Part shown: positions 5,577-62,233 of the stretch, in pieces
How positions within the stretch are numbered: position 1 is the first letter of the stretch
Layout: every line of letters starts with the position of its first letter
DNA from: a virus
Lineage: Duplodnaviria > Caudoviricetes
Virus record (IMG/VR): IMGVR_UViG_3300028797_000093
Strand: one strand, 5' to 3'
DNA length: 64,000 bases
Notes under the pieces: model-generated
Database searches by the model: none
Told to the model about the DNA's origin: nothing
Seen by the model: the letters and a program-made list of their open reading frames with translations, nothing else
Made by a program: the position numbers and the translations under genes

Positions 5577-5620
5577 ATAGCTGTGCTCTCATCTTGGGAG
5601 CACAGCCTATTTTTTCTTTT
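5577..5620 (+). terminator. Intrinsic terminator immediately before cassette array 1
   Basis: GCTGTGCTCTC-atctt-GGGAGCACAGC stem followed by T tract. Confidence 0.8.
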
Positions 5621-6580
5621 TATTGTGATTATTTTACTCAACGTAGTGGTACAAATTATAGTCTTCGTGGTGGTGGATCTAATGATGGTGCTATTTGTGG
5701 AATTTTCTATATTGTTATTTACTACAGCTCCAGTGCTGCTAGTTGGCGTTCTGGCGCCTCCCTATCATTTAAACTATATATATTATTTTTATCAAAGTAG
5801 TGGTGCTCATTATTCTTATCGTGGTGGTAGCTCTGGTTATGGCTTTGCTTGTGGTTTCGCTTGTGTTGTTCTCGTTGCTGCATTTTCTGCTAGCTCTTGG
5901 GGCATTGGCGCTGCCCTATCATTTAAATAAGATAGTTATTATTGTGATTATTTTGGTCAAAGTAGTGGTGCTCATTATGTTCGTCGTGGCGGTCGCTGTA
6001 CTAATGGTTTCAATTGTGGTTTCGCTTATATTAGCCTTGGTGACGGCTTCGGAACGGCCAACTGGTACACAGGCGCCTCCCTATCATTTAAACCATATGT
6101 TTTTCTTTTTATTGTGATTATTTTACTCAAAGTAATGGTACCAGGTATTCTCTTCGTGGCGGTGCCTGTAGTTTTGGTTTTTATTGTGGTATTTTCTATG
6201 TTTACCTCGGCAGTAGCTCTGGTGCCGGCTGGAGCATTGGCGCTACCATATCATTTAAACCGGTCTTTTTTATTGTGATTATTTTGTTCAAAGTAGTGGT
6301 GCTCATTATTCTTATCGTGGTGGTAACTGTGCCCATGGTCTTAATTGTGGCATTTTCTATGTTAATGAATCGGCTGCTGCTAGCAATACCAACTGGTATC
6401 GTGGTGCCGCCCTATCATTTAAACCAATAAGTGATTATTTTTATCAAAGTAGTGGTACTCACTATAGTCTTCGTGGTGGTGCCTCTAGTAATGGCTTCTA
6501 TTGTGGCGTTTTCTTTGTTATTCTCAGCGCCGGCTCTGGTTATGCCAGCTGGTACATTGGCGCCGCCCTATCATTTAAAC
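5616..6580 (+). repeat. Array 1: six tandem DGR variable-region-like cassettes
   Basis: Units at about 5621, 5781, 5931, 6107, 6268, 6431. Each reads (YCD)YFxQxSGxxYxxRGGxxxxGxxCGxxxVxLxxxxxxxxWxxGAxLSFK and ends GG(C/T)GC...TATCATTTAAA. Units lie in different frames and have no RBS/ATG. Confidence 0.95.
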
Positions 6581-6586
6581 AAAAAA

Positions 6587-6630
6587 AAATAAAGGATTGG
6601 AGATTAGTCCAATCCTTTATTTATATTTTT
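6587..6630. terminator. Bidirectional terminator closing array 1
   Basis: AAATAAAGGATTGG-agattagt-CCAATCCTTTATTT inverted repeat flanked by A and T tracts. Confidence 0.8.
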
Positions 6631-7091
6631 TAGATAAGAGCTCTATATCCTTTTATAGATTCAGTATCATCTGGATCTACAGCTCCAGAGCAGAAAGTAT
6701 ATAATTGTCCTTTCTTATTATGTACCATAAAATACCACATACCAAGAGGATTCTTATACATCTCTTTCCAGAATTCTTCCAATTCATCAATTGTATCAAA
6801 TGTATAGTAATCTTTTATTCTGCTACAATCTGTATAATTGTCTGTAAATGTAAAGAACCAATCTTCACATGAAGTATCTTTTGCTTCATCGCTATCATCA
6901 GCAAATGCTATTAAGTATTTAAAATTATTATTAGAAAGAGTATAATCTATATCAGATTCTAGTGGACAATTACGATAATATTTTGTCACTAGTTTCTTCA
7001 TTCCATATAAATCAGTTTCAATACTAGTTTCAGGAGTTAATACAACACCTTTACCATAACAACAGTTCTTACATTTATAACTTTTCAACAA
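6630..7091 (-). CDS. Hypothetical protein (153 aa)
   Basis: TTG start with GGGAGG RBS directly after the polymerase stop codon. Confidence 0.7.
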   Translation of the reverse strand: MLKSYKCKNCCYGKGVVLTPETSIETDLYGMKKLVTKYYRNCPLESDIDYTLSNNNFKYLIAFADDSDEAKDTSCEDWFFTFTDNYTDCSRIKDYYTFDTIDELEEFWKEMYKNPLGMWYFMVHNKKGQLYTFCSGAVDPDDTESIKGYRALI

Positions 7092-7100
7092 TATCCTCCC

Positions 7101-7803
7101 TTATACATGTATCATATTACTATAGTTATTATTTACATTACCTCTAAAGATACCAATAGACTCTAGAGGGAATAGTGATACACAATCATTTATAATACTC
7201 TTATAATCAACAAATGGTAAAATCCATTTAGGAACTTCTTCAGATTCTGGTAGAGCCATAGCATCTATAGACCCAGCATAATCTTTAGTCCCCATAAGAT
7301 TAACCATCTTCATATATACTTCAGGATAAGTATCCTTGATAGCATCTACATTCTTTAGAGTAATATTAGTCTTAATAATATCTATAGTATTTCTTTGTTC
7401 CAGATTGATAGTACTCATACTATCATCTTTAATACTATTATAAGCTAAAGAAGATTTAATCCCTTGTATCCTCATAGGATCATCATAAGCTGCTAAAGAC
7501 TTAATCCTAGCAGGCTTATAGAACTTCTTTTCTCCATTCTGAATACTATCAAATATACCTTTCTCTACAATAGCTATATCTTTCAATACCTTAACTTGAT
7601 CAATCTCATCAGAGTTAAGAATATCTTCTAGCAATATAGTTTTAAGTTGTTCTCTTGTAGTAGCATTAGTAGTCGTTTTAACAAAACAAGGAATACCTTT
7701 AATATCTAATGCTTTTTCTCCTGGTACTATATTACCTTCTTGAAGTAATTGATAAGATGCATAATTCTTTTTAGCATTCTCCAGCAATAGTAACTTCTTA
7801 AAC
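7101..7803 (-). CDS. Family B DNA polymerase, polymerase-domain subunit, exon 2
   Basis: Continues exon 1 in frame after splicing: ...KNEFL/FKKLLLLENAKKNYAS...ALDIKG (PolB KK.Y and KG motifs). Confidence 0.9.
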
Positions 7804-8198
7804 CGCTTGTTCCCTATATTTTCATATAAGGGCAGACTATATCTTCATCTTAGTATCTGTTACCAATATCTAAGATGCCTCCCATTTCGAGATAACTATT
7901 ATAAAGATATCTCTACTCTACTCGGTTCTCATATATAGTATTTCTCTATATATTACCCTTTCGATAGTCGTTGAACCTGCTGTGTTATTTACACAGATTG
8001 GCTGCTGATTGCCCATTGATAATAGGTTTTAGGATTTCTCCATAACCCATCTCTCTACTTGTTTCTGCTTTTCAGCTCCATATAGGCTAGAGAGCTTTAG
8101 GGTGTCCCAGCAATTAAGGAGGTTTACATTCTAATGTCACCATTAGAAGTCCCAATATTCAAATTCAATGTTCTAATCGCATTGAATTGAATGCTTCT
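7804..8198 (-). ncRNA. Group I self-splicing intron, ORF-less (395 nt)
   Basis: Minus strand has P (AATTGCTGGGA), Q (AATCAGCAG), R (GTTCAACGACTA) and S (AAGATATAGTC) in order. The 5' exon ends in U, the intron ends in G, and removal restores the reading frame. Confidence 0.93.
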
Positions 8199-9556
8199 AG
8201 GAACTCGTTTTTCATATACATGAAGCAACTATGATTTTCTGGATTATAGCTATTACTATTCATGCTATATCTGATCATAAAATCATTAGTTATTTCTGTA
8301 ATTACATAACAGATTATATTTATAATAGAATATTTAAGATTATCTTGTGGAACAATCTTATTAGGAGTTATAGCTCTATCAATCTCTATAACTTCATCAT
8401 GCTCGAAATCATAATCTTTAGTATATATTTTAGTAACTTCATCTGTATCCATATTGAGTTCCATCTCCATGATAGGATACTCAAGTCCAGAATTCAGTAC
8501 TTTATCTAGAATAAATCTATACCAACCATCAAGAGATAGAATACAAGAATCAGTATCATTAATAAGTGCTACACTTCTAATAAGAGACTCCATCTTCTCT
8601 GTTCTATCTATATGCTGATGATCATAATATACATATTCTCTTAATAGATTAGAGAATACTTTAAGCTCTTCTTTAATTTCATCTGGTACTTTATTAGGAT
8701 TTACAAAAGGAGCACTAAGTTTCTGTAAAATATAGAGAATAGATCTCAATACTTTACTATTTCTCTCTATAAAAGCAAATAGGTTATTCTTATAATAAAG
8801 TCTATTAAGATCTGTAGGAGATAGACCTGTAAGAATATTCCAAATGATCTGTAGATCTTTCTCATCAGGAAGATATCCAAATCCTATAGATTTTACTATA
8901 TGATAGAAAGTATCATCTATAGATACATCTCCATCAAGAATCTCATAATCAGAGAAGTATCTCTCTTCAGTAATTACATGATTAATGAAAGTGATCACTT
9001 CATTAAGAGAAGAGAATGGTACATTATTATTCAGGAAAGATTCAAACAATAGAGTTGCAGAAGATATAAGATTTCTACCTTCAGTAGTAATAGAAGTCGC
9101 TACGTGAAGATTATAATAGATACAAGAGAACTTACCCAATGCACCATAGAATGCATTAGCATCTATCTTATCCAGTAGCTGTAATAGATTATATCTCTCA
9201 AAATCTTCAGAACCTTTTTCATATTGGAACATTTGTTTCTTATGGATACTTCTATTATCCAAGAACTTCTTGACCATTTCTATAGTAGGATTTGGAACAG
9301 TACCATGCCTACTAAACATAACCCCATAATGAGTTATGATAGGTCTTCTATCATTGATATATTCTACAATATCTTTTAGAGTAGTACTGATAATTTGCTT
9401 CTTATAATTATTATTAATTCTAGCAGGATGATTGGTCTGTCTTTTATCAATAGACCAATTTATAGCTTCTTCAATTTCAGGAACTGTAAGCATCGGAAAA
9501 CTTAGTTTTAGCATTCGTCTAGATATATCTTTATAATCTCTATAAATATCTTCCAT
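8199..9556 (-). CDS. Family B DNA polymerase, polymerase-domain subunit, exon 1
   Basis: Motif B KIDANAFYG and motif C NDTDS; no exonuclease domain (split polymerase as in phiKZ-like phages); spliced product 686 aa. Confidence 0.9.
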
Positions 9557-9723
9557 AGTTTCCTCCCTAAGGAATATATTATTTCTTTCTCTTTTAATAT
9601 AAAGTTTTAAGATATATAAATAATCAAATATATACTATCTAGTCAAAAAGAATTTAATGACTTCATATAACAACATAAAAGTAAATATATCTAATACAAT
9701 CTATACAGGAGGATTAATATAAA

Positions 9724-10128
9724 ATGTCTATTTTTGGAAAGAAGGATGATACCATGAGTGGAAAGCTGAAGAATCCCAATGCTCTTCGTGAAGCTTATCT
9801 ATATGAATATCTAACTGCAAGAGGACAGGAGAAGAAGTTTGTAGACTCTCCAGAAGCATCTGTAATGAAGGAAGAAGGAATGATTACAGATGAACTAATT
9901 GAGAGACTTTCTGCTGCTAAAGCAAATAATAAGAATCTAGAAATGACTGTTCTTCATCTTGCTAAGGCAGAAGATGATCCTCTATTTGATCGTCTTGTAG
10001 CAGCTAGAGCTGAAGAGAGAAATATCATGAATGAACTGATTGCTAAATATCAGGAGTCTGCTGTAGAACTTACTGATAAGTATGTGGATAAGTTCCTGAA
10101 TCAGGAGCTTCCTAAAGAATTTAAATAA
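9724..10128 (+). CDS. Hypothetical protein (134 aa), late-type promoter
   Basis: AGGAGG RBS; AACA-N6-TA at 9672-9683; terminator hairpin at 10144-10169. Confidence 0.75.
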   Translation: MSIFGKKDDTMSGKLKNPNALREAYLYEYLTARGQEKKFVDSPEASVMKEEGMITDELIERLSAAKANNKNLEMTVLHLAKAEDDPLFDRLVAARAEERNIMNELIAKYQESAVELTDKYVDKFLNQELPKEFK

Positions 10129-10171
10129 AATAATAATAATATAGAGGTAGGTCTATAAAGATCTACCTCCT

Positions 10172-10981
10172 TCTTTTTATTGTGATTATTTTTATCAAAG
10201 TGGTGGTACACACTATTCCTATCGTGGTGGTCACTCGAGCAGTGGTTTTATTTGTGGTTTCACTTGTGTTGGTCTAGGTGGCAACTCCAGTGCGACAGGC
10301 TGGTACTATGGCGCCGCCCTATCATTTAAAACTATATGTGTATTATTTTTCTCAAAGTAGTGATACTCACTATTCTGTTCGTGGTGGTCACTCTGGTAAT
10401 GGTTTTTATTGTGGTTTTACTTTTGTTCACCTCATCCGAGGCTCTGGTTTTGCCAGCTGGGGAGTTGGTGCTGCCCTATCATTTAAACCTCTTCTTTTTT
10501 ATTGTGATTATTTTTATCAAAATAGTGGTACTCGTTATGCTTTTCGTGGTGGTTATTGTAATATTGGTTTTGATTGTGGTTTTGCTTTTGCTGGACTCAG
10601 TTATTCTACTGCTGTTGCCAACTGGAATCTTGGCGCCGCCCTATCATTTAAACCATCTTTTTTATTGTGATTATTTTTCTCAAAGTAGTAATACTCATTA
10701 TGCTTTTCGTGGTGGTAGCTCGGGCAATGGGCCCCGTTGTGGTTTTGTTTGTGTCTATCTATACTACAACTCTAGTTATGCCCTCTGGTATGTTGGCGCC
10801 GCCCTATCATTTAAACCAGTCTTTTTATTGTGATTATTTTTATCAAAGTGGTGGTACAAATTATACTTTTCGTGGTGGTGCCTCGAGCGGTGGCTTCTAT
10901 TGTGGGGTTTTCTATGTTGGCCTCCACCGCAGCTCTGGTTATGCCAGCTGGTCCATTGGCGCCGCCCTATCATTTAAACCA
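10172..10981 (+). repeat. Array 2: five tandem DGR variable-region-like cassettes
   Basis: Units at about 10175, 10341, 10497, 10663, 10823 with the same scaffold and 3' end as array 1; begins in the T tract of terminator 10144-10178. Confidence 0.95.
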
Positions 10982-10997
10982 TGGTATTATTTATAAT

Positions 10998-11020
10998 AAT
11001 TATATATTATAAATATGAAT
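10998..11020 (+). promoter_or_regulatory. Putative phage early promoter (ATTATATATTATAAATATGA family)
   Basis: Same motif recurs at about 15723, 17626, 17774, 19982, 39958, 40949, 58222, 58894, 59432 and 62347, mostly upstream of small accessory genes. Confidence 0.6.
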
Positions 11021-11148
11021 CTCAGCATCTGTATCCTCATATAGTTATATCTTATATCTACTGATATTGGATTTACTATTTTATTTTTTGTATGCCAAAC
11101 TTATTAATAAGAAAGAATATATTGCTCTATATAGATGGAGGTTTATAT

Positions 11149-14100
11149 ATGGATTATATCACTGAAGCTCAAGCAAATAAATATAAGAATGATATAAATT
11201 GGATTAATGGTGTATATAAGGGAACTTCTAATCTTAAAGATCAAGAGTCTTCTTATATAGATACATCTAATATATTCAATAATGCTAAGACATTAGATCA
11301 ATATACTAATGCTCTTATTAAAGCAGTAAATGAAGAAAAAGGAAAGTCTAATCAAGTTATCGTTATTCCTCTAGATCCATGGTTTGAACAGTATAATTAT
11401 AGTAGTGGATCTGCTACTGGAGATTCTATCTTTAAAGAGAAGAATATTGGTCCTATTAGTGCCATCTATAAGATGCTTAAAGAGAATCCCTCTAAGTTTA
11501 AGAGAGTATTTGCAGGTATTAAGTTCTATTTTATTATGGGAGAATCCTGTTTTATTTTAGACTCTAATACTGTAGGAAGTACTACTTATAGAACTTTTAG
11601 AGATCTTATTCTGGCTTCTTATGTACCAGCTATGCCTAATGGTGAAAATAAAACTCTTGTAAAGAAGACTAAGAATCTTGATACAGTTTTAAATGATGAA
11701 AAAGAAGAAGCTAAAGAGAATCCATTGAATCCTTTAAAGCTTCCTGAGAATGATAAGAGAACTATCTTGAATACAAAAGAGATAGAGCTTGAAATCATGG
11801 ATATAGTAAATAATATTGTTAATATGGCTTCTAGTGAAGAAGAAGCTAATAAGATGATGCAAGAGGATATGAGACTAAAAGAATTATTAGCTCAAGTACA
11901 AGCTAATAATATGTCTAATATCAATACATCTTCTGCTATGGTTAATATGAATAAGATGAGAAGCAGAAGAATGCAAGGACTCAATGCAGATTTTATGAAC
12001 TTACAAGTCAATGGTAAGACTGTAAGAGATATGATGAAAGATAAAGTAGAAGAAGATATACCTGAAACTTCTCTTAAGATTGATAGTATCAATGATGAGT
12101 GGAAGAAACTTAAGTATATTAACTTTGAAAAGAAATATGATCTAGACAGTGATATTGTAAAGTGTATTTATCATTTTACTAAAACATCTTATCCTATCTC
12201 TATTAGAAATATTAAAGTAGAAGATACGTCTACTACAGAGGACTATATTAATACTTATACTGTAGAATGTGAGGATTATACTGGTAAGAGATTCACTCTG
12301 AAGTTTGATGTACCTCTTTTTATCAATAATAGATTTATGAAACTTGGTGGTAATGAGAAGATCATCAATGGTCAGCTATTGTTACTTCCATGTATTAAGA
12401 CAGATAATGATACTGCTCAGCTAGTATCTAACTATAATAAAGTCTTTGTAAGAAGATATGGTATGGTAGGAAGATCTTATTCTTCTTCAGATAGACTTAT
12501 TAAAGCCCTTAAGAAAGCTAATGGTAAAGTAAAAGATCTTAAGATCACTACTGGTAATAATAGTAAGATCTGTATGAAGTATAGTCTATATGCAGATTAT
12601 ATAGATTTAGCTTCTAACTTCTCTGAGATTAAAACTAAAGATTTCGACTTTATTTTTAATCAGGATTTCTATAGACAGATTGATCCTACTCTTGATAATA
12701 AGAAACTTCCTATCTATATAAATCTTAATGGTAATGAAATGATTATATATGATGACAGTAAGAATAATGTACCAGTAAGTACTGTCATTGCTCAGCTTCT
12801 TTGTGATCAATCTCCTGAGTTTAAAAAGATCTATGAAGCTACAGCCAAAGCAAACAAGATGGTGTATTCTCAAGCTTCTATACTGAAGAATAGAATGCCT
12901 GTCATTGTTATTCTTGGATATCTTCTTGGATTGACTAATACTCTTAAGAAGGCTGGTATTAAGTACAAATTTATTGATAAGAAAATCAATAAGTCTACAT
13001 CTGATGCTGAACTTAAGATTATGTCTAATCCTGATCTATATGATAATATTAAATTTAATGATGGTTACTTATACTATGAACAGACCTATGAATCCAGTAT
13101 GTTAATGAATGGTCTGTTTGATTGTGATACTGAAAACTATTCATTCTCTGAAGTAGATAATAGAAAATTCTGGCTTGATCAGTTGGATCTATTTGGTGGT
13201 AGATTACTATCTGATGGTCTAGATAACTTCTATGATCTGTTCATGGATCCTATGACTGAAGAAGTATGTAATAAGTTTAAATTACCAACAGATTTCTGTG
13301 GACTATTGCTATATGCCAATGATCTACTAGTAGATACTGCATATAATAAGCACACAGATATTACCGGTAATAGATATAGAACTAATGAAATTGTAGCTGG
13401 TTATGTTTATAAAGAACTAGCATCAGCTTATGGTAAATATAGACTCTCTATCAAACATGGTAGAAAAGAGCCTATGAATATTAAACAGAATGCTATTTTA
13501 ATTGCTGTTATGACAGATTCTATGAGTAGCGATCTATCTACTATGACTCCTCTACTGGAAAAAGAATCTGCTAATACTGTATCTTTTAAAGGTCTTTCAG
13601 GTATGAACTCTGATAGATCTTATAGTCTAGATAAACGTACATTTGATGATTCTATGATCAATAAACTAGGACTTTCTACAGGTTTCTCTGGTAATGTAGG
13701 TATTACTAGACAAGCTACAATAGATATGGATATTGAGGGAGAACGTGGTTATGTAAAGAACAGTTCTCTTAATGATGTAAGTGATGCTAAAACTATGAGT
13801 GCAACAGAAGCTATGACACCATTTGGTACTACTAGAGATGATCCTTTTAGATCTGCTATGACATTTGTACAGACTTCTAAGCACTCTATGAGAACTAAAG
13901 GATCTGCTCCTCTACTTATTACTAATGGTGCTGATGATGCACTTCCGTATATGATAGGAAATACTTTCGTATTTAAAGCTAAAGAAAATGGTAAAGTAGT
14001 TGAACTAGTTGAAAATGAGTATATGATTCTAGAGTATGATAATGGAGATCATGACTATGTAGATCTGTCTGTTATCGTTAAGAAAAACTCAGATGCTGGT

Positions 14101-15051: not shown

Positions 15052-15138
15052 TAAAATAAGAGAGAAGGATATTATTCCTTCTCTCTTTATGTTTTTATAT
15101 ACTCTTATACTTATTAGTAATAGGAGGTATAAAATATT

Positions 15139-15657: not shown

Positions 15658-15722
15658 AATAGTATGTTAAGTTAACAGTATTCATTATTGTTATTTTATT
15701 CATTATAATTATGAATATTTTT

Positions 15723-15809
15723 AATTGTATATCATAAATATGAATATAGGGTAGTAGCTCTGAACTACTACCCTATACTTTTATTCCACCCGAAAGGAGG
15801 TGAAATAAG
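15723..15809 (+). promoter_or_regulatory. Repeated promoter-hairpin-RBS leader, copy 1
   Basis: TATCATAAATATGAA-TATAGGGTAGTAG-loop-CTACTACCCTATA-...AAAGGAGGTGAAA; near-identical copies at about 19962, 58202 and 58874. Confidence 0.85.
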
Positions 15810-16001
15810 ATGACGAAGCTTATAGCTTCACCTAGGATCTCTAAGGCAATCCACGATCTTAGAGATCTTCCAGAACTCCACCATATGGATGTTCTGAGTC
15901 CTTTAGAAAAATATTGTGCTGATAAGATGATAGAATATATCATGAAAAATCCACATGTAGATTTCTATCTGAAAAGTCTAATGCACAATATTAACGGCTG
16001 A
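15810..16001 (+). CDS. Microprotein family A (63 aa)
   Basis: Strong RBS; paralogous to 20068-20265 (L.ASP.ISK....RD.PE..H..VLSP.EK.C.D.M). Confidence 0.85.
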   Translation: MTKLIASPRISKAIHDLRDLPELHHMDVLSPLEKYCADKMIEYIMKNPHVDFYLKSLMHNING

Positions 16002-17609: not shown

Positions 17610-17670
17610 AAATCTAGAATATTTCGATTATATATTATAAATATGAGTAATAGGAAAGGAGGATCTCATA

Positions 17671-19961: not shown

Positions 19962-20067
19962 TTGTAATAGTTTATATTTATGATTATATAATATAGATAT
20001 GAATATAGGGTAGTAGTTACAGCTACTACCCTATACTTTTATTCCACCCGAAAGGAGGTGAAATAAA
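19962..20067 (+). promoter_or_regulatory. Repeated promoter-hairpin-RBS leader, copy 2
   Basis: TATAGGGTAGTAG/CTACTACCCTATA hairpin at 20004-20035 plus CTTTTATTCCACCCGAAAGGAGGTGAAATAA identical to copy 1. Confidence 0.85.
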
Positions 20068-20265
20068 ATGACAAGTCTTACAGCTTCCCCTAGTATCTCT
20101 AAGATTGTTAAACAAATTAGAGACTTCCCCGAAGACCGTCATTCACATGTTCTGTCACCTATAGAAAAAGAATGTGTTGATAGGATGGTAGATAACTTTA
20201 TGAAAAGTCCAGTTATAAACTTATATTTAAAATTTAAAGTAAGTGAAAAACTGGCACTCCTCTAA
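20068..20265 (+). CDS. Microprotein family A (65 aa)
   Basis: Paralog of 15810-16001; followed by the same terminator sequence. Confidence 0.85.
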   Translation: MTSLTASPSISKIVKQIRDFPEDRHSHVLSPIEKECVDRMVDNFMKSPVINLYLKFKVSEKLALL

Positions 20266-40881: not shown

Positions 40882-41020
40882 TAATATAGGAGAAGTCGTA
40901 ACTGACTTCTCCTATTATTTTTTCTCGTTTGTAAAAGTTAATATTTTAGATTATATATTATAGATATGAATAGGTAGTATAATCTATCCTATATCTCACT
41001 ATAGAAAGTGAGGTGAAATA

Positions 41021-52611: not shown

Positions 52612-52631
52612 CGGCTATTATTTCAACCTCC

Positions 52632-52865: not shown

Positions 52866-52916
52866 GATAAAATCCTTTCTTGATAATAATATTTCTGCCT
52901 ATCACTTATATAATAT

Positions 52917-53900
52917 TTATTTCAAATAAAATTTAGAAGTCTGAGCTTCTGTCTGATGCTGATAACGTCCATTATACTGAATGGAAGTATCTCCAGCAGG
53001 TACAAAGAAAGAGATTTGACAAATAGGAATATTGGGATAGATAATAATGGGCTGAGCTACAGTAATCTCTAGAGTCCACTTACCATCAAAACCAATATCT
53101 CCAAAACCAGCAGTCTGATGAATAGAAATACCAAGGCGGCCAACAGATGAACGTCCATCAATATTGGGCTGGAATTTATTCGTGAAAGTTCTTTCTTTAG
53201 TAGTAGCAATATAAACCTTACCAGGCATTAGGGGATATCCATCTTCAGGAATAATGAACTCTTCAAATGGATTTTCTTTTAGCATATCTAGATACATAGT
53301 ATGATCATTTTTATTTTTGCTCTGATAAATTGGTCTATATGTCTTAAAGATATTATCAAGAAGCAAATCATATGAATTTGGGCCAATTCTATTCATATCA
53401 AAATCTTCAATCTCAATATTACCCATAATTATTTGACGAACAATCTCACTACCTGTAAGTTTACCACCCACAAGCTGAATACTTTCGTCGTATTTATATT
53501 CAGGAAGTTCTATACCTGCTTCCTTAGCCATCTCTCTATACTTCTTTTCTGCTTCAGCATACTTATTAGTACTAGATTTAGTAGACTTCTTAGGAGCAGG
53601 CTTTTCTTCCTTAACCTCAACAGGAGCCTCTTCATTCTTCTCTTCTGCAGATTTAGAGATAAAACCTCCTAGAGGAATACCTGTGTCTTTTACAGCTATT
53701 TCTTCTAGAGTATTCATTAGATTATCATTATTTGTTTCTTCTGCAACAACAGTAGTTTCAACCTTTACATCTTCAACAGGAGCAGCTTCTGCTACAACAG
53801 CAGGTTCTACTGCTTCTTCAACCTTTGTTTCCTCTACAGCTTCTTTAACTGCTGTAGTTGTCTTCTTTCTAGTGCTAGATGATGTTTTCTTAGTCGCCAT
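52917..53900 (-). CDS. dcd: dCTP deaminase with long low-complexity N-terminal extension
   Basis: GPNSYDL, GRSSVGRLGI..HQTAGFGDIGFDGKWTLEI, ICQI.F and YNGRYQ.Q motifs. Confidence 0.9.
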   Translation of the reverse strand: MATKKTSSSTRKKTTTAVKEAVEETKVEEAVEPAVVAEAAPVEDVKVETTVVAEETNNDNLMNTLEEIAVKDTGIPLGGFISKSAEEKNEEAPVEVKEEKPAPKKSTKSSTNKYAEAEKKYREMAKEAGIELPEYKYDESIQLVGGKLTGSEIVRQIIMGNIEIEDFDMNRIGPNSYDLLLDNIFKTYRPIYQSKNKNDHTMYLDMLKENPFEEFIIPEDGYPLMPGKVYIATTKERTFTNKFQPNIDGRSSVGRLGISIHQTAGFGDIGFDGKWTLEITVAQPIIIYPNIPICQISFFVPAGDTSIQYNGRYQHQTEAQTSKFYLK

Positions 53901-54021
53901 TCTTATTATCTCCTTTATGTAAAGAATTAATTAATAGACACTTTTATTGTAAAAGTTAAGTCTGTAATATTATATAAATTAAATGGGATAGACAAATAAT
54001 TATCTATCCCATATTATATTA

Positions 54022-56643
54022 TCAATACTTACTATACTCCATTAGCTGTTTAAAAGCTGTTGGATGCTTAGTGGTTTTTACTTCTGCAGGATCTGGATCT
54101 AGAATGACAGACTTATAAAAAGAACCAGAAGAGAAAGACTCTTTAATAAGCTTCACATTATCTATATTAGAAGCTATGAAGAGTTCTGTACTGGTTGTAT
54201 TATAATTCTTCAATCTATCAAAATAGATCTTATAAATCTTCCCATAGATATCTAGCTTTCTTTTAATAAGCTCATCAAAATTCTTATATGTAGGTTTCTG
54301 AATATCATCCATCTTTTTAGCATCTACACAGTCAGATAGTCTAATGATTTTATCAATCATCTCGATACACATCTTATCTGGTGTATTGGTTCCAAAGTTG
54401 ATATTCATAAGCTTATATAAGATATTAAGCTGAGAGTAAGTATATTTATAGAAAGGAGCTGTAGCAGCTTCTATAAATTCCAGTACTTTTCTATATCTAT
54501 CTTCTGTTACAAAACATACATAAAGTCCTACAACAGATTCTTGAGAGAAATCCGATGCTGATGTTTTCAGTAACTGGCTACCATTTACATTCTTATTGAA
54601 ATAATATAGTTCACTAAGATCTGGAACTATAGAGAGATATATATTATCATAACAGTATAGGAAGAATAGAGGGAACTTCCTCTTCTTCTTAAATGTAAAC
54701 TTAAGATCTGCAGCTTCATCAATAGAGAAGAAATCTGTATCTATATCTTCTATTAGTAGAAGATCTTTACCCAATCCACTCTCAGAGAAATATTCTGCAT
54801 TCTTTGAGATAGCATTTACAAGATCATTTACTTTTTTACCATTATACTCATCAGCTCTACCACTATAAAGCATATAAATCTTATTATTAATAGACAGATC
54901 TGTCTTTAGCTTCTGTGGTGATACTAATTTCTTATATTCGTTATTATTCCTCAGATTTACATTTGCTACCTGTAACATTCTATCTGTAAAAGATGAGCAT
55001 ACGAATCTATTAGTTTGATTTACATTTATTCCAAAGAGATATTTCAAGAAAGAGATATGGTCAAAACCAAAATCTTCTTTATTCTTCTTAAAATACTCTA
55101 TAGTATACTTAAGATTCTCATAGTACTTCTTCTTAATAAAAGTACAATATACTTCAATATAATGATCTCCATAAATCTCTACAGGTTCAGGACCAAAACC
55201 TCCAAGAGGCTGTTCTGCCTTTAGATCTATAGTACCATCAAAACTCCATGTATCTTTAAGCTCTGCATCAAATGCTATAGCTGCATGAGATACATCACTA
55301 TTGGTAAAGTATTTAATAAGATTAGAAATTACTTTCTTTCTGGATACCAGAATAATAAAGATAGGATATAGCTTCTCTCCTTTACTATTCTCCAAATATC
55401 CAGGAATATCCTCATCTGTAATTCCTCTCAGATCAATAAACTTAGTCTTTTTATCTAAGAAGTCTTTAACTTTTTTATCATTTATAGCTCTATTTTCTGG
55501 ACTAAATGCAACCTCGGGATCCCAGCCCAATTCTAGAATAGATTGCTTTCTAGCATTGAGCTTATCAATATCTCCAGATTCTTCTAGTTCTTGTAGATCA
55601 CTATATAGTCTCTCTAAAGTATGAACTCTGGCAAGATTATGTTCTTTCAGATAATTGATCTGATTATTCTTATATGCTTCAAACCAATCTTTTACTGTTG
55701 TTCCATCTTCAAGAACAGTATTATCAGCTATATTATCAAAACAATTAGTAGTACCAGAGAAAACTCCTAAATCAACCATTCTATCTGCTGTAAAGTATGG
55801 AAGATCATTATAGATAATATCCATATCTACAATATCATTATCCATTACTTCTCTATCAGCAATATCTTTAGTAATAGAATCTTCAAAGAGTTTTCTATCT
55901 AGTTCTGTTTCAAGAAGATTATAGAGATTAAAAGCAGTTTCCATAACCACTTTAGGCTCCTCATATACCATAACCTTCTTCATATACTTTTTAGCAAATG
56001 ATAGAGCATTACTCTTTACTTTATCTGGAGTTACAGATTCTGTAAGAGTATACTCATTATGCTTAAGCTTATAGTAAAGCTCTTCATTATCCATTTTAAA
56101 ATGCTTCTTACAGATAGCATCAGATATAGATCTATCTTTATCTGTCATAGCATAATATTCACCAATGAGATTATCAAGAGCATCAATATTATCACATGGA
56201 TATACTATTGCTACTTCATTTTCTCTTGCTTCTGCTATAGCTTCTTTAATAGATAGATCAAGTTCAGACATCACAGACTCATTGAGTATTGTAGATTTAT
56301 GAATATTATCATACATCATACGGACATGATTATATACTCTATCTTCTTTAGCTTTAATATCCATAGAAGATTCTTCTATATATAGATTATTTGATGTCTG
56401 TGATGTATACATATCTTTTAGAGCCTTATAATGATCAAAGTTATCCATACCAAATATTCTATAAGATTCTACATCAGATTTCTTTCTTACAGACTTTGGC
56501 TGATTCTTAAACTTTTCCCATAGATCATTAAGACTCTCAAGAGTTTCTGTAGGATATATAATGTATATATTACTGCTATAAGTATATTCTATAGCTCTAT
56601 CTATAGAATTCAGATAATCATTCAAAGATAGATCATTCTGCAT
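54022..56643 (-). CDS. Large putative internal virion protein with permuted papain/NlpC-P60-like domain
   Basis: SHAAIAFD ... FVCSSFT (His before Cys); repeated xxES sites; start uncertain. Confidence 0.55.
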   Translation of the reverse strand: MQNDLSLNDYLNSIDRAIEYTYSSNIYIIYPTETLESLNDLWEKFKNQPKSVRKKSDVESYRIFGMDNFDHYKALKDMYTSQTSNNLYIEESSMDIKAKEDRVYNHVRMMYDNIHKSTILNESVMSELDLSIKEAIAEARENEVAIVYPCDNIDALDNLIGEYYAMTDKDRSISDAICKKHFKMDNEELYYKLKHNEYTLTESVTPDKVKSNALSFAKKYMKKVMVYEEPKVVMETAFNLYNLLETELDRKLFEDSITKDIADREVMDNDIVDMDIIYNDLPYFTADRMVDLGVFSGTTNCFDNIADNTVLEDGTTVKDWFEAYKNNQINYLKEHNLARVHTLERLYSDLQELEESGDIDKLNARKQSILELGWDPEVAFSPENRAINDKKVKDFLDKKTKFIDLRGITDEDIPGYLENSKGEKLYPIFIILVSRKKVISNLIKYFTNSDVSHAAIAFDAELKDTWSFDGTIDLKAEQPLGGFGPEPVEIYGDHYIEVYCTFIKKKYYENLKYTIEYFKKNKEDFGFDHISFLKYLFGINVNQTNRFVCSSFTDRMLQVANVNLRNNNEYKKLVSPQKLKTDLSINNKIYMLYSGRADEYNGKKVNDLVNAISKNAEYFSESGLGKDLLLIEDIDTDFFSIDEAADLKFTFKKKRKFPLFFLYCYDNIYLSIVPDLSELYYFNKNVNGSQLLKTSASDFSQESVVGLYVCFVTEDRYRKVLEFIEAATAPFYKYTYSQLNILYKLMNINFGTNTPDKMCIEMIDKIIRLSDCVDAKKMDDIQKPTYKNFDELIKRKLDIYGKIYKIYFDRLKNYNTTSTELFIASNIDNVKLIKESFSSGSFYKSVILDPDPAEVKTTKHPTAFKQLMEYSKY

Positions 56644-58123
56644 TCTCTTGCTCACCACCTAGCTGCTTTTTAGTGAACCTGATCTGTTTCTCTACTACTT
56701 TAATCTTTGGAATAATATAATTCTTAATAGTATCATCAGATGGTCTCACTTCATAGTAAGAACTACAGATAGTAATTCCATCATCATCTTTAATCTTCTC
56801 ATGTACAAAATATCCATCAGGATTATGAGAAACTCCATAGCTATCATCTATATCTTCAGTATCAATAAATACTGGTTTGCCACTTAGATCATCATTAGAT
56901 AGCTTTATAGTATTCTTTACATAGTCATCTGTATATATAGGATCTATTCTCTTAAACTTATCAGAGAATATAATCTCATCAGGATCTAATACCTTTCTAT
57001 TTAGAAGAGTGGATAGTATAAAGTTACTATCTACCTCTTTTCCACTTTTTAGTGCATCTATAATGACATTTTTAAAATTAGTTGGATCATCACTTCCTGA
57101 GAACTCATAAATCAATTGATCTGGGAGTGGTAAATCATCAACTTTGATCATTTTTAGGGTATTACAGTGTTCTAGTACTGCTATATCGTCAAAAAGGGCA
57201 TAAATGCCTATATTTTCACTATTTTCATCATCTTCACCACTAAAAGCATTATTCATCATAGTGGGAATTACATATACACTACTAGGTCCTGCAGGAGGTA
57301 CTCCTCCCATAGCTCCAGTACCGACAGGAGTGTTCTCATTGATAGATATCTTGACTCCTCTGTCAGGTTCTACTATATCATATTTAATATCAGCAAGGAT
57401 TTCAAATAGTTGTAAGAAGTTATTATTAGTCAGTCTAAGGTAATTAAAAGTACCTTTATCTGTAATCATCTCTTCTTTAGCTACTTGTTTCTCTCTGTAA
57501 GATTTCATAGGTCTATTATTAGGATTATCTCCACCATCTTTTACTTCTATCACAAGATTAGCAGGGATATAATAAAGGTCTGTAATCCAAAAATGCTTCT
57601 TTCCACCATAATCATATTCAAATACTGGACCTGGGGATTGAATATCCTTACCATCTACATTTAGAGCTTTATCAAAGAACTCCAGTAGCTTCTTCTCATA
57701 TTGTCCAGTATAAGGAACCACTGTTCCATCAGTAGAGAATTTATAAGTACCAGAAATTTTCCTTCTGGCAAGCATCTTCTCCTGCTGTTCAGGTTCATCA
57801 AGAAGATGAGGTTTATTATAAACTCTCATCATATTATTTACAGAAGTCTGTCTAACTGCTTCTCTACAGCTAGGTTTATTACAAAGATTTTTATATTTAG
57901 ATAACTTCTCATCCCAATCATAAACCTTATCTTTACAAATCATACAAGTTCCATAATTCTTTTTATTTACTACTTCATATATAACTCTAGCAGCTGTGTA
58001 TCCCTCTGGGATCATTTCAGGATGCTTTGTTTCTACATGCTCTATCAAATCAGTTCGTAAGAACTTAGTATCACAATATGGACACATATATCTTTTATTT
58101 GTCTTATATTGCTTGGTAGCCAT
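56633..58123 (-). CDS. Zinc-finger plus PD-(D/E)XK-type nuclease protein
   Basis: CPYC..H...H, CMIC...C....C and TDLYYIPANLVIEVK; late promoter 58171-58160. Confidence 0.65.
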   Translation of the reverse strand: MATKQYKTNKRYMCPYCDTKFLRTDLIEHVETKHPEMIPEGYTAARVIYEVVNKKNYGTCMICKDKVYDWDEKLSKYKNLCNKPSCREAVRQTSVNNMMRVYNKPHLLDEPEQQEKMLARRKISGTYKFSTDGTVVPYTGQYEKKLLEFFDKALNVDGKDIQSPGPVFEYDYGGKKHFWITDLYYIPANLVIEVKDGGDNPNNRPMKSYREKQVAKEEMITDKGTFNYLRLTNNNFLQLFEILADIKYDIVEPDRGVKISINENTPVGTGAMGGVPPAGPSSVYVIPTMMNNAFSGEDDENSENIGIYALFDDIAVLEHCNTLKMIKVDDLPLPDQLIYEFSGSDDPTNFKNVIIDALKSGKEVDSNFILSTLLNRKVLDPDEIIFSDKFKRIDPIYTDDYVKNTIKLSNDDLSGKPVFIDTEDIDDSYGVSHNPDGYFVHEKIKDDDGITICSSYYEVRPSDDTIKNYIIPKIKVVEKQIRFTKKQLGGEQENAE

Positions 58124-58201
58124 ATTCTACCTCCATTAACTTATATAGAATTGTTTAATTATCATTATGTTGATGCAATGATTGTATTCATTTAAATTGA
58201 A

Positions 58202-58309
58202 TTGTAATAGTTTATATTTTAAATTATATATCATAGATATGAATATAGGGTAGTAGCTATAGACTACTACCCTATATTTTATCCCACCTCAGAGAGGAGG
58301 TGAAAAACA
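58202..58309 (+). promoter_or_regulatory. Repeated promoter-hairpin-RBS leader, copy 3
   Basis: TTGTAATAGTTTATATTTTAAATTATATATCATAGATATGAATATAGGGTAGTAGCT is identical to the copy at 58874. Confidence 0.85.
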
Positions 58310-58492
58310 ATGCTCAAACAATATAGTTTATCTCAGCAATATGATCAGTTTATGAAAAAGACTGATCCATACTGGGAAAACAAAGAAAATTACCGGGTCC
58401 AGGAAGAGTATAAGAAAATACTCAAACTAGACCCAGTAACCCCAATGTGGCTCAGGAGCCCAATTCCTGAGAACATGTCTATGGATGTATAA
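58310..58492 (+). CDS. Microprotein family B (60 aa, ends SMDV)
   Basis: Paralog of 41021-41209. Confidence 0.85.
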   Translation: MLKQYSLSQQYDQFMKKTDPYWENKENYRVQEEYKKILKLDPVTPMWLRSPIPENMSMDV

Positions 58493-58622
58493 TTCATGAC
58501 ATGTTTGAGAGTGAGTCTAGTGACAATAGGCTCACTCTCTTTCAATATAATGTGGTTTATTTTTTATATTTAATTATGATTAGTATATTATAGTAATAGA
58601 ATAAAAGAGGAGGATTGTTCAA

Positions 58623-58832
58623 ATGGTTAACCCTATTAGTATTGATATCGCTAAAGCAAATAGTGAGATCATGGAAGTTAATATGAAACTTCTTGATAAA
58701 CTATTTGACAGAAAGATTATCACTCCTGAAGAGTATGATACAGAATTGAGAAAGATGGCTGATACTGCAGGTATTTCTTACTATAAACCACCAGAACCTC
58801 CTAAGCCTAAAAAGAGTATTTTCTATAAGTAA
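58623..58832 (+). CDS. Small hypothetical protein (SHOCT-like LFDRKIITPEEY)
   Basis: GAGGAGG RBS; terminator follows. Confidence 0.7.
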   Translation: MVNPISIDIAKANSEIMEVNMKLLDKLFDRKIITPEEYDTELRKMADTAGISYYKPPEPPKPKKSIFYK

Positions 58833-58873
58833 AGAATATAAGAGAGAAGTTTATATACTTCTCTCTTATTTTT

Positions 58874-58982
58874 TTGTAATAGTTTATATTTTAAATTATA
58901 TATCATAGATATGAATATAGGGTAGTAGCTCTGAACTACTACCCTATACTTCTATTCCACCTTGGAGAGGAGGTGAAATAAG
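58874..58982 (+). promoter_or_regulatory. Repeated promoter-hairpin-RBS leader, copy 4
   Basis: Hairpin 58916-58948 is identical to copy 1, including the loop CTCTGAA. Confidence 0.85.
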
Positions 58983-59165
58983 ATGGTGTCTCTATCAGAT
59001 CAATTTGATCTTGTCGTAAGAACAACTGGATCTGATAACAGAGACTGGGACAACGATAGGATCCGAGATGAACTCATGAAAATGAACATTGAGGAATCTA
59101 GAGTTCCCACTTGGGTAGCTATGGAGATAGCACAATACCCAAACAATTGGTCAATGGATATATAA
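58983..59165 (+). CDS. Microprotein family B, divergent (60 aa, ends SMDI)
   Basis: SLS.Q.D start and SMDI end shared with family B. Confidence 0.8.
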   Translation: MVSLSDQFDLVVRTTGSDNRDWDNDRIRDELMKMNIEESRVPTWVAMEIAQYPNNWSMDI

Positions 59166-59312
59166 CCATTTGATCAATCTTCCTCATATTAAGGTCGGTG
59201 GATGAAAAGTCCATGTCGGATCATTTATAAGAGGGTGAGTTGGCACAAACAGCTCATCCTCTTATTATATAGTAAGTGTTAGTATTTGTTTATATAAAGG
59301 AAGGAGAAAACA

Positions 59313-59384
59313 ATGAAGAAGATTATCAATAAACTGAACAGAATTATCTTTGAAAAACTGTTCAAGCAGGTTAATATCTGCTAA
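59313..59384 (+). CDS. 23-aa cationic micropeptide MKKIINKLNRIIFEKLFKQVNIC
   Basis: AAGGAG RBS and terminator hairpin right after the stop. Confidence 0.6.
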   Translation: MKKIINKLNRIIFEKLFKQVNIC

Positions 59385-59502
59385 AGAAAATATAGGGGAG
59401 GCTTTAAAACCTCTCCTATATTTTTTATAATAATTATATATAATATAATAGAGTAAGTTATTTGAAAGGGGATTATTAGCTTGTATTTTAGAGGATTTAT
59501 GT

Positions 59503-59943
59503 ATGTATTACACTAGTAAGAAACATAAAAGCGGAGGAAGGATATACAACTCAGAGTTGTATATGACTAAAGAAGGAAAATTATCTATATATAATATGGA
59601 ACGTGGTGTGAAAATGAGAGAATTCACATCAGCTTCTCAAATATACAGAATGGAAATATATCTATCTTCTGGTATTAGAAGTAAAGCTGTTACTACAAAA
59701 GAAGAGACTAAGAGAATAGCTGAGAAATATAGATTGGAGAAACATCCTTGTGAAGGAAATCCTAAATATAAAGGTGATACTCAATTTATTTATGATGAAT
59801 TAAGAAGAACCTTTACTAATGTAGATTGGGATTCTAGATTCCCTAATCACGATGGTAAAGGATATAAAAGACTAGTATATGCTCTATTATATGGAGAAAA
59901 TAGATGCACAGTAATTAAAAAGGAGGAGCAGAATGAGATATAA
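59503..59943 (+). CDS. Hypothetical protein
   Basis: ORF downstream of early-type promoter at about 59432; start uncertain. Confidence 0.65.
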   Translation: MYYTSKKHKSGGRIYNSELYMTKEGKLSIYNMERGVKMREFTSASQIYRMEIYLSSGIRSKAVTTKEETKRIAEKYRLEKHPCEGNPKYKGDTQFIYDELRRTFTNVDWDSRFPNHDGKGYKRLVYALLYGENRCTVIKKEEQNEI

Positions 59944-61108
59944 ATTACGTAATGAAATTGCTAAATCTTTTGATATATATGATCTTCCTGAAAAGAATGT
60001 AGATGAAGAAATTAAAGCACTCTTTAATAAGCTTGATCTAGTTGATCTATTTAGAACTTCATTGAATAATGTTTCTATCTCAGCAGAAGGACATATAGAA
60101 GGTTTTTATGCTCAAATTAAGTATTGTCTTACTACAGATAAAACATCCATTGAGGATAAGAATAATATACTGGTCACTATGTATAATTCTATCTTCGTAT
60201 TGTTCGCTTGTATAACTGGATTAGATACTCGTTTCGCTACATTGGTTAATAATGATAAGAGGGTGAATCCTGTTAATTTTATTGAAGTTTTTCTCACTAA
60301 ATGTCTTTATGATTGGATGTATACTAGTGAGAATAAATATCTCCAGTGTGCTGCTACATTTATTCTAGTAAGAGCAACTGCATATTCTTTTAAAGATTTC
60401 TTAAATCTGAGAGATAAGATCTTTATTGATTTTAATACAAACAATCTTTATAATATGACTCATGTAGAGTTTATTGCAAGAACTACTATAGACATTCAGA
60501 ATCAAGATCATTATAAAATCCTCATGTATTATATCTTGAACTATATCTTTGGAGAACTTGGTATTAATTATTATACCAATAACAAAGATGAAGATATTAA
60601 GATTAAGAATAAAGTAATTAATGATGTATATGAACTACTCTACTACAATCAGGATTCTAATAATATATATGATGTAATGATCAGATGTGCAGCATATAGA
60701 GTTATTAGACTCAGAAAACCTGATTTGATTGATATGGTAGAATATGAAGATGTAGAAGATGATGATAATGAGATTGATCATACATACTATATGTATATAG
60801 GAGAAGATGAATTTTATAAATGCACTATTAATGAACTCACAGCATTTAAGAAACTGGAAGATGGAAGTTATCTAGTATCTGAATATTCTATTGATGCTGT
60901 ATGTTTTGATAAAGAATGGTTCATCCATCATCCCAATGAAGAATATATTATAGTAGATGAAGCTCCTGAATTCTTTGAAGTTATTCATAATGAGTTTTTC
61001 GATATGGCTTTCAATAGTGATCCAGATCTATTTGATAGACCTTTCATACTCTACTATGACAGAGAGTCTGCAAAGAGAGCTTTCATGGAAAGAAAGAAAA
61101 TAAAATAA
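59933..61108 (+). CDS. Hypothetical protein (391 aa)
   Basis: AGGAGG RBS; terminator at 61113-61148. Confidence 0.75.
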   Translation: MRYKLRNEIAKSFDIYDLPEKNVDEEIKALFNKLDLVDLFRTSLNNVSISAEGHIEGFYAQIKYCLTTDKTSIEDKNNILVTMYNSIFVLFACITGLDTRFATLVNNDKRVNPVNFIEVFLTKCLYDWMYTSENKYLQCAATFILVRATAYSFKDFLNLRDKIFIDFNTNNLYNMTHVEFIARTTIDIQNQDHYKILMYYILNYIFGELGINYYTNNKDEDIKIKNKVINDVYELLYYNQDSNNIYDVMIRCAAYRVIRLRKPDLIDMVEYEDVEDDDNEIDHTYYMYIGEDEFYKCTINELTAFKKLEDGSYLVSEYSIDAVCFDKEWFIHHPNEEYIIVDEAPEFFEVIHNEFFDMAFNSDPDLFDRPFILYYDRESAKRAFMERKKIK

Positions 61109-61152
61109 TATAAAATAAAGGATAGGAGTTTCCTATCCTTTATTTTTTATAA

Positions 61153-62233
61153 TAAAAGCTACGAGTACTACATATGCTTATCGTGGTGGTGCCTCTAGTT
61201 CTGGCTTTTATTGTGGCATTTTCTATGTTAATCTGAACACTGCTGCTTCTGGGCATGTATGGTCTCTTGGCGCCACACTATCATTTAAACCATCTTTTCT
61301 TTTTATTGTGATTATTTTGCTCAAAGTAGTGGTACTCATTATGCTCTTCGTGGTGGTCGCTCTGGTAATGGCTTTCTTTGTGGCGTTTTCTATGTTCTTC
61401 TGAACTCTACTGCTTCTGGGTATGTCTGGAATTTTGGCGCCACACTATCATTTAAACTTAATATATAAAGCTACGAGTACTACATATCCTAGATGTGGTG
61501 GTGCCTCGAACGATGGTTCTCGGTGTGGGGTTTTCTTTGTTACTCTGGGCAACAGCTCTGGTGCTACCAACTGGTACGCTGGCGCCGCCATATCATTTAA
61601 CTTATGGTATTATTTTTCTCAAAGTAGTGGTGCTCATTATGTTCGTCGTGGCGGTCGCTGTACTAATGGTTTCAATTGTGGTTTCGCTTATATTTCTCTG
61701 TACGATTCGTTTTCTACTGCAGGCTGGTATTCTGGCGCTGCCCTATCATTTAAACCATATATAAAGCTACGAGTACTACATATGCATATCGTGGTGGTCT
61801 CTCTAGGGATGACTTTTATTGTGGTTGCGCTTGTGTTAACCTCAACTACAACTATAATAATGCCAGCTGGCGTATTGGCGCTGCCCTATCATTTAAATAA
61901 GGGCAGCTATTATTGTGATTATTTTTCTCAAAGTAGTGGTACCAGGTATTCTATTCGTGGTGGTAACTGTAGTGCTGGCTCTAATTGTGGTTTCGTCTAT
62001 GTTCATCTTAGTGTTTCGTTTTCTAACTACTCTTGGAATCGTGGCGCCGCCATATCATTTAAACCATCTCTTCTTTTTATTGTGATTATTTTTATCAAAG
62101 TAGTGGTGCTCACTATTCTTATCGTGGTGGTGTTTCTACAAGTGGGCTCGGTTGTGGCGTTTTCTATGTTAATCTGGACGGTACTGCTTCTAGGGCTGGT
62201 TGGTATCTTGGCGCCGCCCTATCATTTAAATAA
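61153..62233 (+). repeat. Array 3: seven tandem DGR variable-region-like cassettes
   Basis: Units at about 61155, 61301, 61464, 61608, 61760, 61902, 62075; three begin with the alternative leader AAAGCTACGAGTACTACATAT; flanked by terminator hairpins. Confidence 0.95.

Follow-up and report, generated by a model that had tools for sequence, protein, structure and literature searches.

The window, a 64,000-nt stretch of DNA, derives from the 244-kb genome of a PBS1/AR9-like rumen jumbo phage (G000) and contains three tandem arrays of putatively silent variable-region (VR) cassettes on the plus strand. Array 1 (5616..6580, six cassettes with 3' ends at about 5773, 5927, 6092, 6259, 6423, and 6579) begins inside the T tract of an intrinsic-terminator-like hairpin (5580..5606, plus strand) that ends the gene at 4612-5574, and is closed by a bidirectional terminator-like hairpin (6587..6622, strand not assigned). 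Array 2 (10172..10981, five cassettes) likewise begins inside the T tract of a terminator-like hairpin (10144..10169, plus strand), which ends the gene at 9724-10128. Array 3 (61144..62233, seven cassettes) follows the terminator-like hairpin (61115..61143, plus strand) ending the gene at 59933-61108, and the hairpin closing it was read from the sequence at 62239..62277 (strand not assigned). A repeat search of the window recovered one family of 18 copies of approximately 147 nt each, with 61-86% identity to the reference copy. These are the 6 + 5 + 7 units located by the sequence-only reading, whose example peptide is the translation of 6433-6579. Its count of 18 units holds for the window but not for the whole library, as at least 54 orphan VR cassettes in 13 arrays are spread genome-wide.

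The arrays in the window are no assembly artefact and recur in independent assemblies, which removes a doubt raised earlier: the JGI contigs L033 and L035 carry identical units and match array 3 and array 2 unit by unit (99.98% and 99.4% identity, respectively), and the gene spacing over arrays 1 and 2 in an ENA 203-kb contig agrees with the window. Neither a DNA pattern nor a flanking gene brought up a close relative in IMG/VR or GTDB. The units had been described as free of internal stops and often out of frame with each other, and both observations stand. Genome-wide, the VR frame is open in all 52 ungapped cassettes, while the other two sense frames contain stops in 42 and 10 of the 52; in the window, the frame is kept across 4 of 15 unit junctions, which matches the chance expectation. 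There is therefore no selected fusion ORF, and a fused multi-VR protein was rejected. Gene callers predict spurious ORFs over the arrays, such as 61422-62243, which follows the VR frame in some units only. The units are partial copies with constant arms and a variable core, the cassette layout of vls/pilS-type systems.

Eleven of the 13 arrays begin 37-55 nt past a sense terminator, against a background of about 3%, and the T-rich 5' ends of the cassettes merge with the terminator T tracts. The arrays are dispersed and occur in both orientations; in relatives, one long array is located immediately upstream of the unit formed by the template repeat (TR) and the reverse transcriptase (RT), on the same strand. 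The hairpins found after the targets are absent from the cassettes. As most cassettes are located behind terminators and lack a gene body, they are presumably silent. A link between the cassettes and a neighbouring TIGR-like array was rejected, with 35 10-mers in common compared to 38.9 in shuffles.

A complete avd-less DGR comprising the TR, the RT, and two adjacent tail-protein targets lies outside the window, about 55 kb beyond it (G000:C1:93-5317). The genome thus holds the AAY-rich TR, the DGR RT, and the full-length genes with the same C-terminal peptide that had been predicted, but not the predicted Avd gene: PF22296 had no match above the cut-off in the genome, the one weak hit being inside an unrelated 858-aa frame. 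DGRs without avd are known, as in Lineage 3 (Wu et al., 2018; PMC5758913). The RT matches PF00078 (E 6.7e-22) and phrog_1423 (E 6.8e-103) and lies approximately 240 nt after the TR. Changes relative to the TR affect 11 of 27 A sites in target 1 and 14 of 27 in target 2, and none of the 68 other sites in either. The TR and VR differ in their 3' ends, and a hairpin follows the VR (hairpins z -4.8). The model of the target protein (pLDDT 91) has TaqVP as its best PDB match (5vf4, E 3e-7, TM 0.34/0.45, modest scores), followed by Mtd, TvpA, and FGE with weak E-values; no PDB match for this protein was obtained at the sequence level. The VR lies at the C-terminus of this protein, for which a C-type-lectin fold is predicted. 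An HNH gene beside the DGR was rejected as a required part, being absent from L050-L056, where conversion is clearest.

The 5' arm and the 3' end of the cassettes match the target genes, and both are missing from the TR; the cassettes are therefore not raw cDNA, and they evidently descend from target 3' ends. The suggestion that they were simply laid down as DGR cDNA fails on these flanks and on the many non-A differences, since units in the window depart from the current TR at 8-25 of the 78 non-A sites. The cassettes were also rejected as DGR remote targets, because they have no gene body and, even against the best-fitting of seven TRs, show 2-22 non-A mismatches. They mismatch the TR at 69% of A sites versus 22% of other sites (permutation p<1e-5), an excess that supports a DGR ancestry. 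A few cassettes are nearly TR-compatible, such as G000 79164 with two non-A mismatches, and slot 1 of L056 has the look of a recent overwrite, which shows that slots are written. Polar growth of the CRISPR kind was rejected, as TR-likeness is independent of array position and unit order differs between strains. Pairs of orthologous cassettes differ by 21 synonymous and 40 non-synonymous codon changes, which would be weak evidence of constraint at best.

The comparison of related phages that had been proposed for array presence and unit turnover revealed both. Among close strains, arrays turn over, with cassettes overwritten, shuffled, gained, and lost, and L038 has wholly different cores at the site of array 3. 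Arrays persist in three lineages with targets 66-100% identical; none accompany the canonical relatives that belong to this target family at 33-48% identity. Neither an RT nor a VR was detected in eight jumbo phages at a greater distance (helicase identity 36-56%; completeness at least 90% for three of them), the VR search being one without a positive control.

In three relatives, the target-1 VR is identical to a cassette of the phage's own array, over 126/126 nt in L054, 122/122 nt in L055, and 111 nt in L052, and in each of these assemblies the donor is kept in place. Non-A differences between each of these VRs and the TR of its genome number 25 (L054), 21 (L055), and 22 (L052), and, as judged from the sequences, the VRs cannot derive from that TR. 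Orthologues of the donor cassettes occur in arrays of sister strains (105/106, 114/121, 115/119, and 110/120 nt), where the targets carry other VRs, and the target VR matches its own strain's version of the cassette, not the sister-strain orthologue. The persistence of diverged orthologues in sister strains identifies the cassette as the donor, and since shared cassettes predate the strain splits and target alleles are strain-specific, at least three transfers ran from cassette to target. One further contig (L060) has a copy of the DGR locus at each end. The two copies agree over 4.48 kb apart from the target-1 VR; one allele equals cassette 7, and both alleles are thus present in one sample.

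In the lineage of G000 itself, G000 cassette -91776 and the third target of L040 agree at 144/147 nt, and the VR peptides of targets P0001, P0126, and P0171 are identical to cassettes. P0160 joins the distinctive 5' arm of G000 cassette -91636 to a TR-compatible core, and target 2 of G000 has a 5' arm in common with cassette 79164, pointing to exchange. Both G000 targets have no non-A mismatch to the TR, so whole-core recall is seen in relatives only. Among the 14 targets for which DNA was at hand, nine could not have been produced from the available TR, and TR-incompatibility is also seen in many target peptides, which indicates that a non-TR route is common; for five of these nine, namely targets 1 and 2 of L050, target 2 of L055, target 1 of L056, and L058, no donor is known, the distant arrays of their genomes lying outside the comparison. 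The predicted sharing of tracts between the VR of an expressed gene and the cassettes thus appears in relatives as long identical tracts in full-length targets, and the cassette copies of 111-126 nt in three genomes lend support to the proposed union of a DGR with vls/pilS-style gene conversion.

Assemblies do cross at shared cassette sequence. L047 joins two arrays, the target body runs on into an array in L034 and L045 and in the proteins P0159, P0164, P0165, and P0172 (all left out as possible chimeras), and L060 starts exactly at the shared 126-nt tract, which would fit matches between target and cassette produced by assembler jumps between repeats. However, in the cases counted, only 12-20 nt of shared sequence lead into the core and out of it, and the target's own tail follows; as these arms are shorter than the usual assembler k-mers, reads must hold the junctions. 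The cases also come from different studies and involve different cassettes, and chimeras are a very improbable explanation. No more probable is a DGR with multiple templates, in which cassettes are transcribed, reverse-transcribed, and retrohomed into the target, as the long array just upstream of the TR and RT on the same strand in relatives might suggest. For the tracts observed, the adenines refute this: 0 of 26, 24, and 22 are changed in L054, L055, and L052, compared to 9-17 of 23-27 in TR-derived targets, and the chance of such intactness under RT copying is about 1e-5 or less per tract. The cassettes are, besides, VR-like, share their 3' end with the target and not with the TR, and lie mostly behind terminators far from the RT. 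Least credible of all is a one-way archive or a set of remote targets, in which sequence would flow into the cassettes, from targets or TR cDNA, but never out of them. Slots do get written, as G000 79164 and slot 1 of L056 indicate, but the transfers from older cassettes into strain-specific target alleles ran the opposite way, and the cassettes lack the hairpins that follow targets.

The strongest rival, itself unlikely, is that the cassettes are inert by-products, i.e., old target ends dumped at T-rich terminator tails by short-homology recombination, with copy-back as unselected leakiness. Fusion of T-rich cassette 5' ends with terminator T tracts could explain the placement mechanically, no dedicated recombinase was found in G000, and the synonymous excess between orthologous cassettes is small. 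Against it stand the common non-TR route, the persistence of arrays in three lineages, and the lack of a stop in any of the 52 cassettes, compared to about 48% per cassette under neutral decay of equal depth, a test that cannot tell selection apart from an origin in functional alleles.

We therefore favour, as the probable reading, that the arrays form a library of silent donors for the binding tip at the C-terminus, combining DGR hypermutation with vls/pilS-like gene conversion. The library would serve the two or three tail proteins that are targets of the phage's DGR and whose tip may be changed by two routes. In one, the RT of the avd-less DGR would copy the TR with adenine errors into the target VR, an activity suggested by the signature seen in the targets. 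In the other, non-reciprocal DNA recombination would copy a cassette core of approximately 110-125 nt faithfully into the target, bounded by short shared arms of 12-20 nt and leaving the cassette in place, the outcome seen in relatives. The cassettes may store tips beyond the reach of today's TR, including ones made from earlier TR alleles and ones altered by non-A changes or indels. Mosaic targets suggest that, after recall, a tip can be rewritten from the TR once more while the cassette-derived 5' arm is retained. The RecA, RecT, ERF, and Rad52 families had no match in G000 and AAA_24 a weak one only; host or divergent phage enzymes may carry out the recombination, and a PD-(D/E)XK exonuclease encoded near the DGR is one candidate phage gene. 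A two-way cycle, in which the phage would actively deposit DGR-made VR alleles in slots shielded by terminators and later recall them into the tail gene, with selection maintaining the store, is a tentative extension with somewhat less than even chances. If true, it would give the phage a heritable memory of past receptor specificities.

Borrelia vls/vlsE, Neisseria pilS/pilE, and Anaplasma msp2 consist of promoterless partial copies of the variable region of a surface protein, with constant arms, which are copied non-reciprocally into a full-length locus while the donor is retained. The phage arrays resemble them in the partial donor copies, the constant arms, and the donor kept after copying, but they serve a phage tail protein, their donors bear the adenine signature of a DGR still acting on the same target, the donors are distributed over 13 sites behind terminators, whole cores are replaced, and no recombinase was identified. 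Invertible tail-fibre cassettes (Mu Gin, P1 Cin, p15B Min) and shufflons also store alternative 3' ends for a host-binding protein, using site-specific inversion beside the gene among few fixed alternatives. The donors here are dispersed, in both orientations, stay put while the target holds a copy, and turn over, and such an inversion system was rejected.

The DGR itself resembles that of Bordetella phage BPP-1 (mtd-avd-TR-brt) and the avd-less Lineage 3 in its RT, AAY-rich TR, VRs differing at adenines only, distinct TR and VR 3' ends, hairpins after the VR, TaqVP/Mtd-like fold, and two adjacent targets. Unlike a canonical DGR, it is accompanied by the orphan VR copies without gene bodies, and its targets are also rewritten by faithful cassette copying, with 13-28 non-A differences from the TR, whereas the maximum among 372 DGRs was 11 (Wu et al., 2018; PMC5758913). 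DGRs with remote or multiple targets, such as that of Treponema denticola, likewise pair one TR with several VRs, some of them distant from the RT; those targets, however, are full genes defined by A-only differences from the TR (Wu et al., 2018, PMC5758913; Roux et al., 2021, PMC8144416), while the units here are not genes, lack hairpins, and have many non-A differences. In the searchable literature, which leaves subscription journals mostly uncovered, no description of a donor library for a DGR or a phage receptor-binding protein was found.

DGR targets are thought to be limited to the adenine changes of one TR, and the phage would go far beyond this in one step, by exchanging its tip for a stored version free of stops, much as surface antigens are changed in Borrelia and Neisseria. 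Cassette copying is also a concrete candidate source of the non-A differences between TR and VR reported in 23% of DGRs (Wu et al., 2018; PMC5758913), and DGR scanners demanding A-only differences would miss targets rewritten in this way. The approximately 140 distinct cassette cores collected across the genomes compared also make up a natural library of binding surfaces on the predicted C-type-lectin fold, and they document how the TR has evolved.

The three arrays proposed by the sequence-only reading, at 5616-6580 (6 units), 10172-10981 (5 units) and 61153-62233 (7 units), are present and form a single family of 18 copies, each of about 147 nt. The parent virus record (G000) is 244,302 bp long, and its closest RNA polymerase beta subunits (30–34% identity) are those of PBS1/AR9-type jumbo phages that infect Staphylococcus, Listeria, and Bacillus. 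The names of several related contigs give rumen metagenomes as their origin; a Firmicute host is suggested by the names of MAGs that encode target homologues, and by a GH25 lysin close to the DGR. Arrays matching unit for unit occur in two independently assembled loci, L033 and L035, and are thus not the artefact of one assembly. With the constant 3' end as a genome-wide query, 56 units were detected: 54 are orphans, grouped into 13 arrays that occur on both strands, and two lie within full-length genes. One more, partial unit stands at the contig end. Cassettes beyond the window are designated by continuing its coordinate scale in both directions, with negative values for those before its start. 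The 54 cassettes are a minimum, since the ends of G000 are incomplete. A 253,886-bp contig carries the same target proteins, so about 9.6 kb is absent from G000 and probably holds a third target and further arrays.

A complete diversity-generating retroelement (DGR) is located about 55 kb beyond the window, with all parts on the minus strand of contig G000:C1 (locus L002). It comprises an AAY-rich template repeat (TR, about 5210-5317), an RT-18-like RNA scoring under the Rfam cut-off (5051-5124), a reverse transcriptase (RT) of 419 aa (3708-4967), and, in tandem, target 1 (521 aa, 1940-3505), which matches the tail-protein family phrog_5302, and target 2 (529 aa, 93-1682). A third target is present in the close strain L040, at a position that falls past the end of the G000 contig. 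The confident model of target 1 is nearest in structure to TaqVP, a DGR variable protein, and next to Mtd; the variable tip may act in host recognition. Compared with the TR, the two targets are changed only at adenines (11/27 and 14/27 A sites, 0/68 other sites), and two strong hairpins lie 3' of the targets. No avd was found in the G000 search, as in DGR Lineage 3. Conserved sequence blocks occupy the usual place of avd upstream of the TR (about 5330-5620), and the same site in the related loci L050 and L052, and are a candidate for a structured portion of the DGR RNA; a small 89-aa ORF there had no family match. An optional HNH endonuclease gene lies between the cassette array and the TR (G000:C1:5872-6579 and L058:6986-7705) and is not present in L050-L056.

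The orphan cassettes derive from the targets. Their mismatches to the TR affect 69% of A sites and 22% of the remaining sites; the tryptophan and the terminal glycine-alanine never vary, and no in-frame stop occurs in any of 52 cassettes, indicating descent from DGR-diversified working alleles. The earlier suggestion that they were laid down as plain DGR cDNA does not hold, as each contains a target-gene 5' arm and the target 3' end, both missing from the TR. They are also not products of the present TR: even the best-fitting of seven TRs leaves 2-22 non-A mismatches. The TR varies among strains, which accounts for part of these mismatches. The cassettes lack the gene body and the hairpins found 3' of targets, and are presumably silent. 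Eleven of the 13 arrays start 37-55 nt past a same-strand terminator (background about 3%), and the T-rich 5' arm of the cassettes runs into the terminator T tract, so the position of the arrays may have a mechanical cause, may reflect selection for silence, or may combine the two. A long TIGR-like array, whose units measure about 36-37 nt and contain short conserved boxes, lies some 28,400-30,900 bases ahead of the window on the minus strand of its numbering and ends at a terminator directly followed by a 3-cassette array; it showed no excess of matches to the cassettes.

Unit turnover, which the sequence-only reading had proposed looking for in related phages, was observed: strains 95-99% identical in the flanks hold differing units at the same sites. 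L038 has 9 units against 7 in G000, with the 5' arm-type order mostly preserved and all cores replaced; L041 preserves two array-1 units in a changed order; L036 has 1 unit against 3; and L039 has 5 units where G000 has another, short sequence. Within G000, a 76-nt tract is common to two cassettes and a 51-nt tract to two others. Arrays also occur in relatives whose targets are about 79% (L050-L056) and 66% (the cluster of L058) identical. Canonical DGR phages that share the target family at 33-48% identity lack them, and no DGR was seen in the distant jumbo phages examined; the library thus seems to characterise this clade, and may be kept by selection. L047 fuses two arrays that lie 60 kb from each other in G000. 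The junction is at a 61/63-nt stretch common to both, and the fusion is either an assembly chimera or true recombination between arrays.

In relatives, cassettes are copied into targets faithfully and non-reciprocally. Tracts shared by cassettes and target variable regions (VRs), predicted from the sequence alone, were found in full-length genes: the VR of target 1 matches one cassette from the same genome exactly over 126 nt in L054, 122 nt in L055, and 111 nt in L052, while differing from its own TR at 25, 21, and 22 non-A positions, respectively. None of the 26, 24, and 22 adenines in these tracts is changed, whereas about half are altered in TR-derived targets, so the copy bypassed the mutagenic RT. 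For each donor cassette, a diverged orthologue sits in arrays of sister strains with other VRs in their targets, and the target fits the version found in its own strain. This makes the cassette the older sequence and the donor, retained in place. In ERZ12302819 NODE_26, the DGR locus stands at both contig ends, identical over 4.48 kb apart from the target-1 VR. One of the two alleles equals cassette 7, and the other is the allele seen in a second sample that has the same array.

In the lineage of G000 itself, the third target of L040 agrees with cassette -91776 of G000 in 144/147 nt, and the VR peptides of target proteins P0001, P0126, and P0171 are identical to cassettes. P0160 joins the distinctive 5' arm seen in cassette -91636 to a TR-compatible core, read as a putative conversion followed by retrohoming. 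Among 14 targets with DNA, 5 are TR-compatible and 9 are not, with a matching cassette known for 4 of the 9; TR-incompatibility by itself is no proof of cassette origin, as some strains may have another TR. On the P0126 contig (ENA ERZ27256849), only 1,056 bp separate the HAD gene from target 1, no RT gene was called, and the VR peptide equals cassettes of L034/L039; this strain is possibly RT-less yet bears a cassette-type tip. In the TR of L058 (L058:8202-8312), a stop codon replaces the invariant tryptophan, and a target that received a direct copy of this 3' end would in many cases be truncated. This TR may be in decay, whereas the strain still has a 5-unit array and a TR-incompatible target.

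The copying evidence comes from assembled contigs, with the repeat-crossing contigs L047, L034, and L045 left out. The counted cases enter and exit through only 12-20 shared nucleotides and then return to the target's tail, a path seen in assemblies but normally impossible for an assembler without supporting reads. Such short-arm recombination may be carried out by the host or by an unrecognised phage enzyme; searches of G000 for the RecA, RecT, ERF, and Rad52 recombinase families found no match. Whole-core recall was not seen in the two targets of G000, the clean cases being in relatives, and the three cleanest donors are all in the array adjoining the DGR; donation by dispersed arrays like those of the window is suggested by the L040 and peptide matches. 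VR alleles may in turn be archived into cassette slots. Cassette 79164, with a target-2 arm and a near-TR core, and slot 1 of L056 show recent slot writing, and would fit copying from a target or direct cDNA integration equally.

The core element is a DGR, and the cassette layer works like vls/pilS gene conversion. The cassettes do not fit the definitions of DGR remote targets, extra templates, or invertible cassettes. The system is classed as a coupling of two known kinds, a DGR and vls/pilS-like gene conversion, and our literature search found no description of this combination. In a survey of 372 DGRs, the maximum was 11 non-A differences per target, and the available portion of that survey reports no donor arrays (PMC5758913).

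Elsewhere in the window, DNA polymerase B is split into ORFs at 8165-9556 and 7101-7787, and the approximately 380 bp between them (7788-8164), without a long ORF, are possibly an intron remnant. An AT-rich promoter-like element (repeat families D5-D8) occurs in five copies, at 15703-15845, 19962-20103, 40929-40989, 58202-58289, and 58874-58961, with a hairpin after four of the five and a ribosome-binding site in some.
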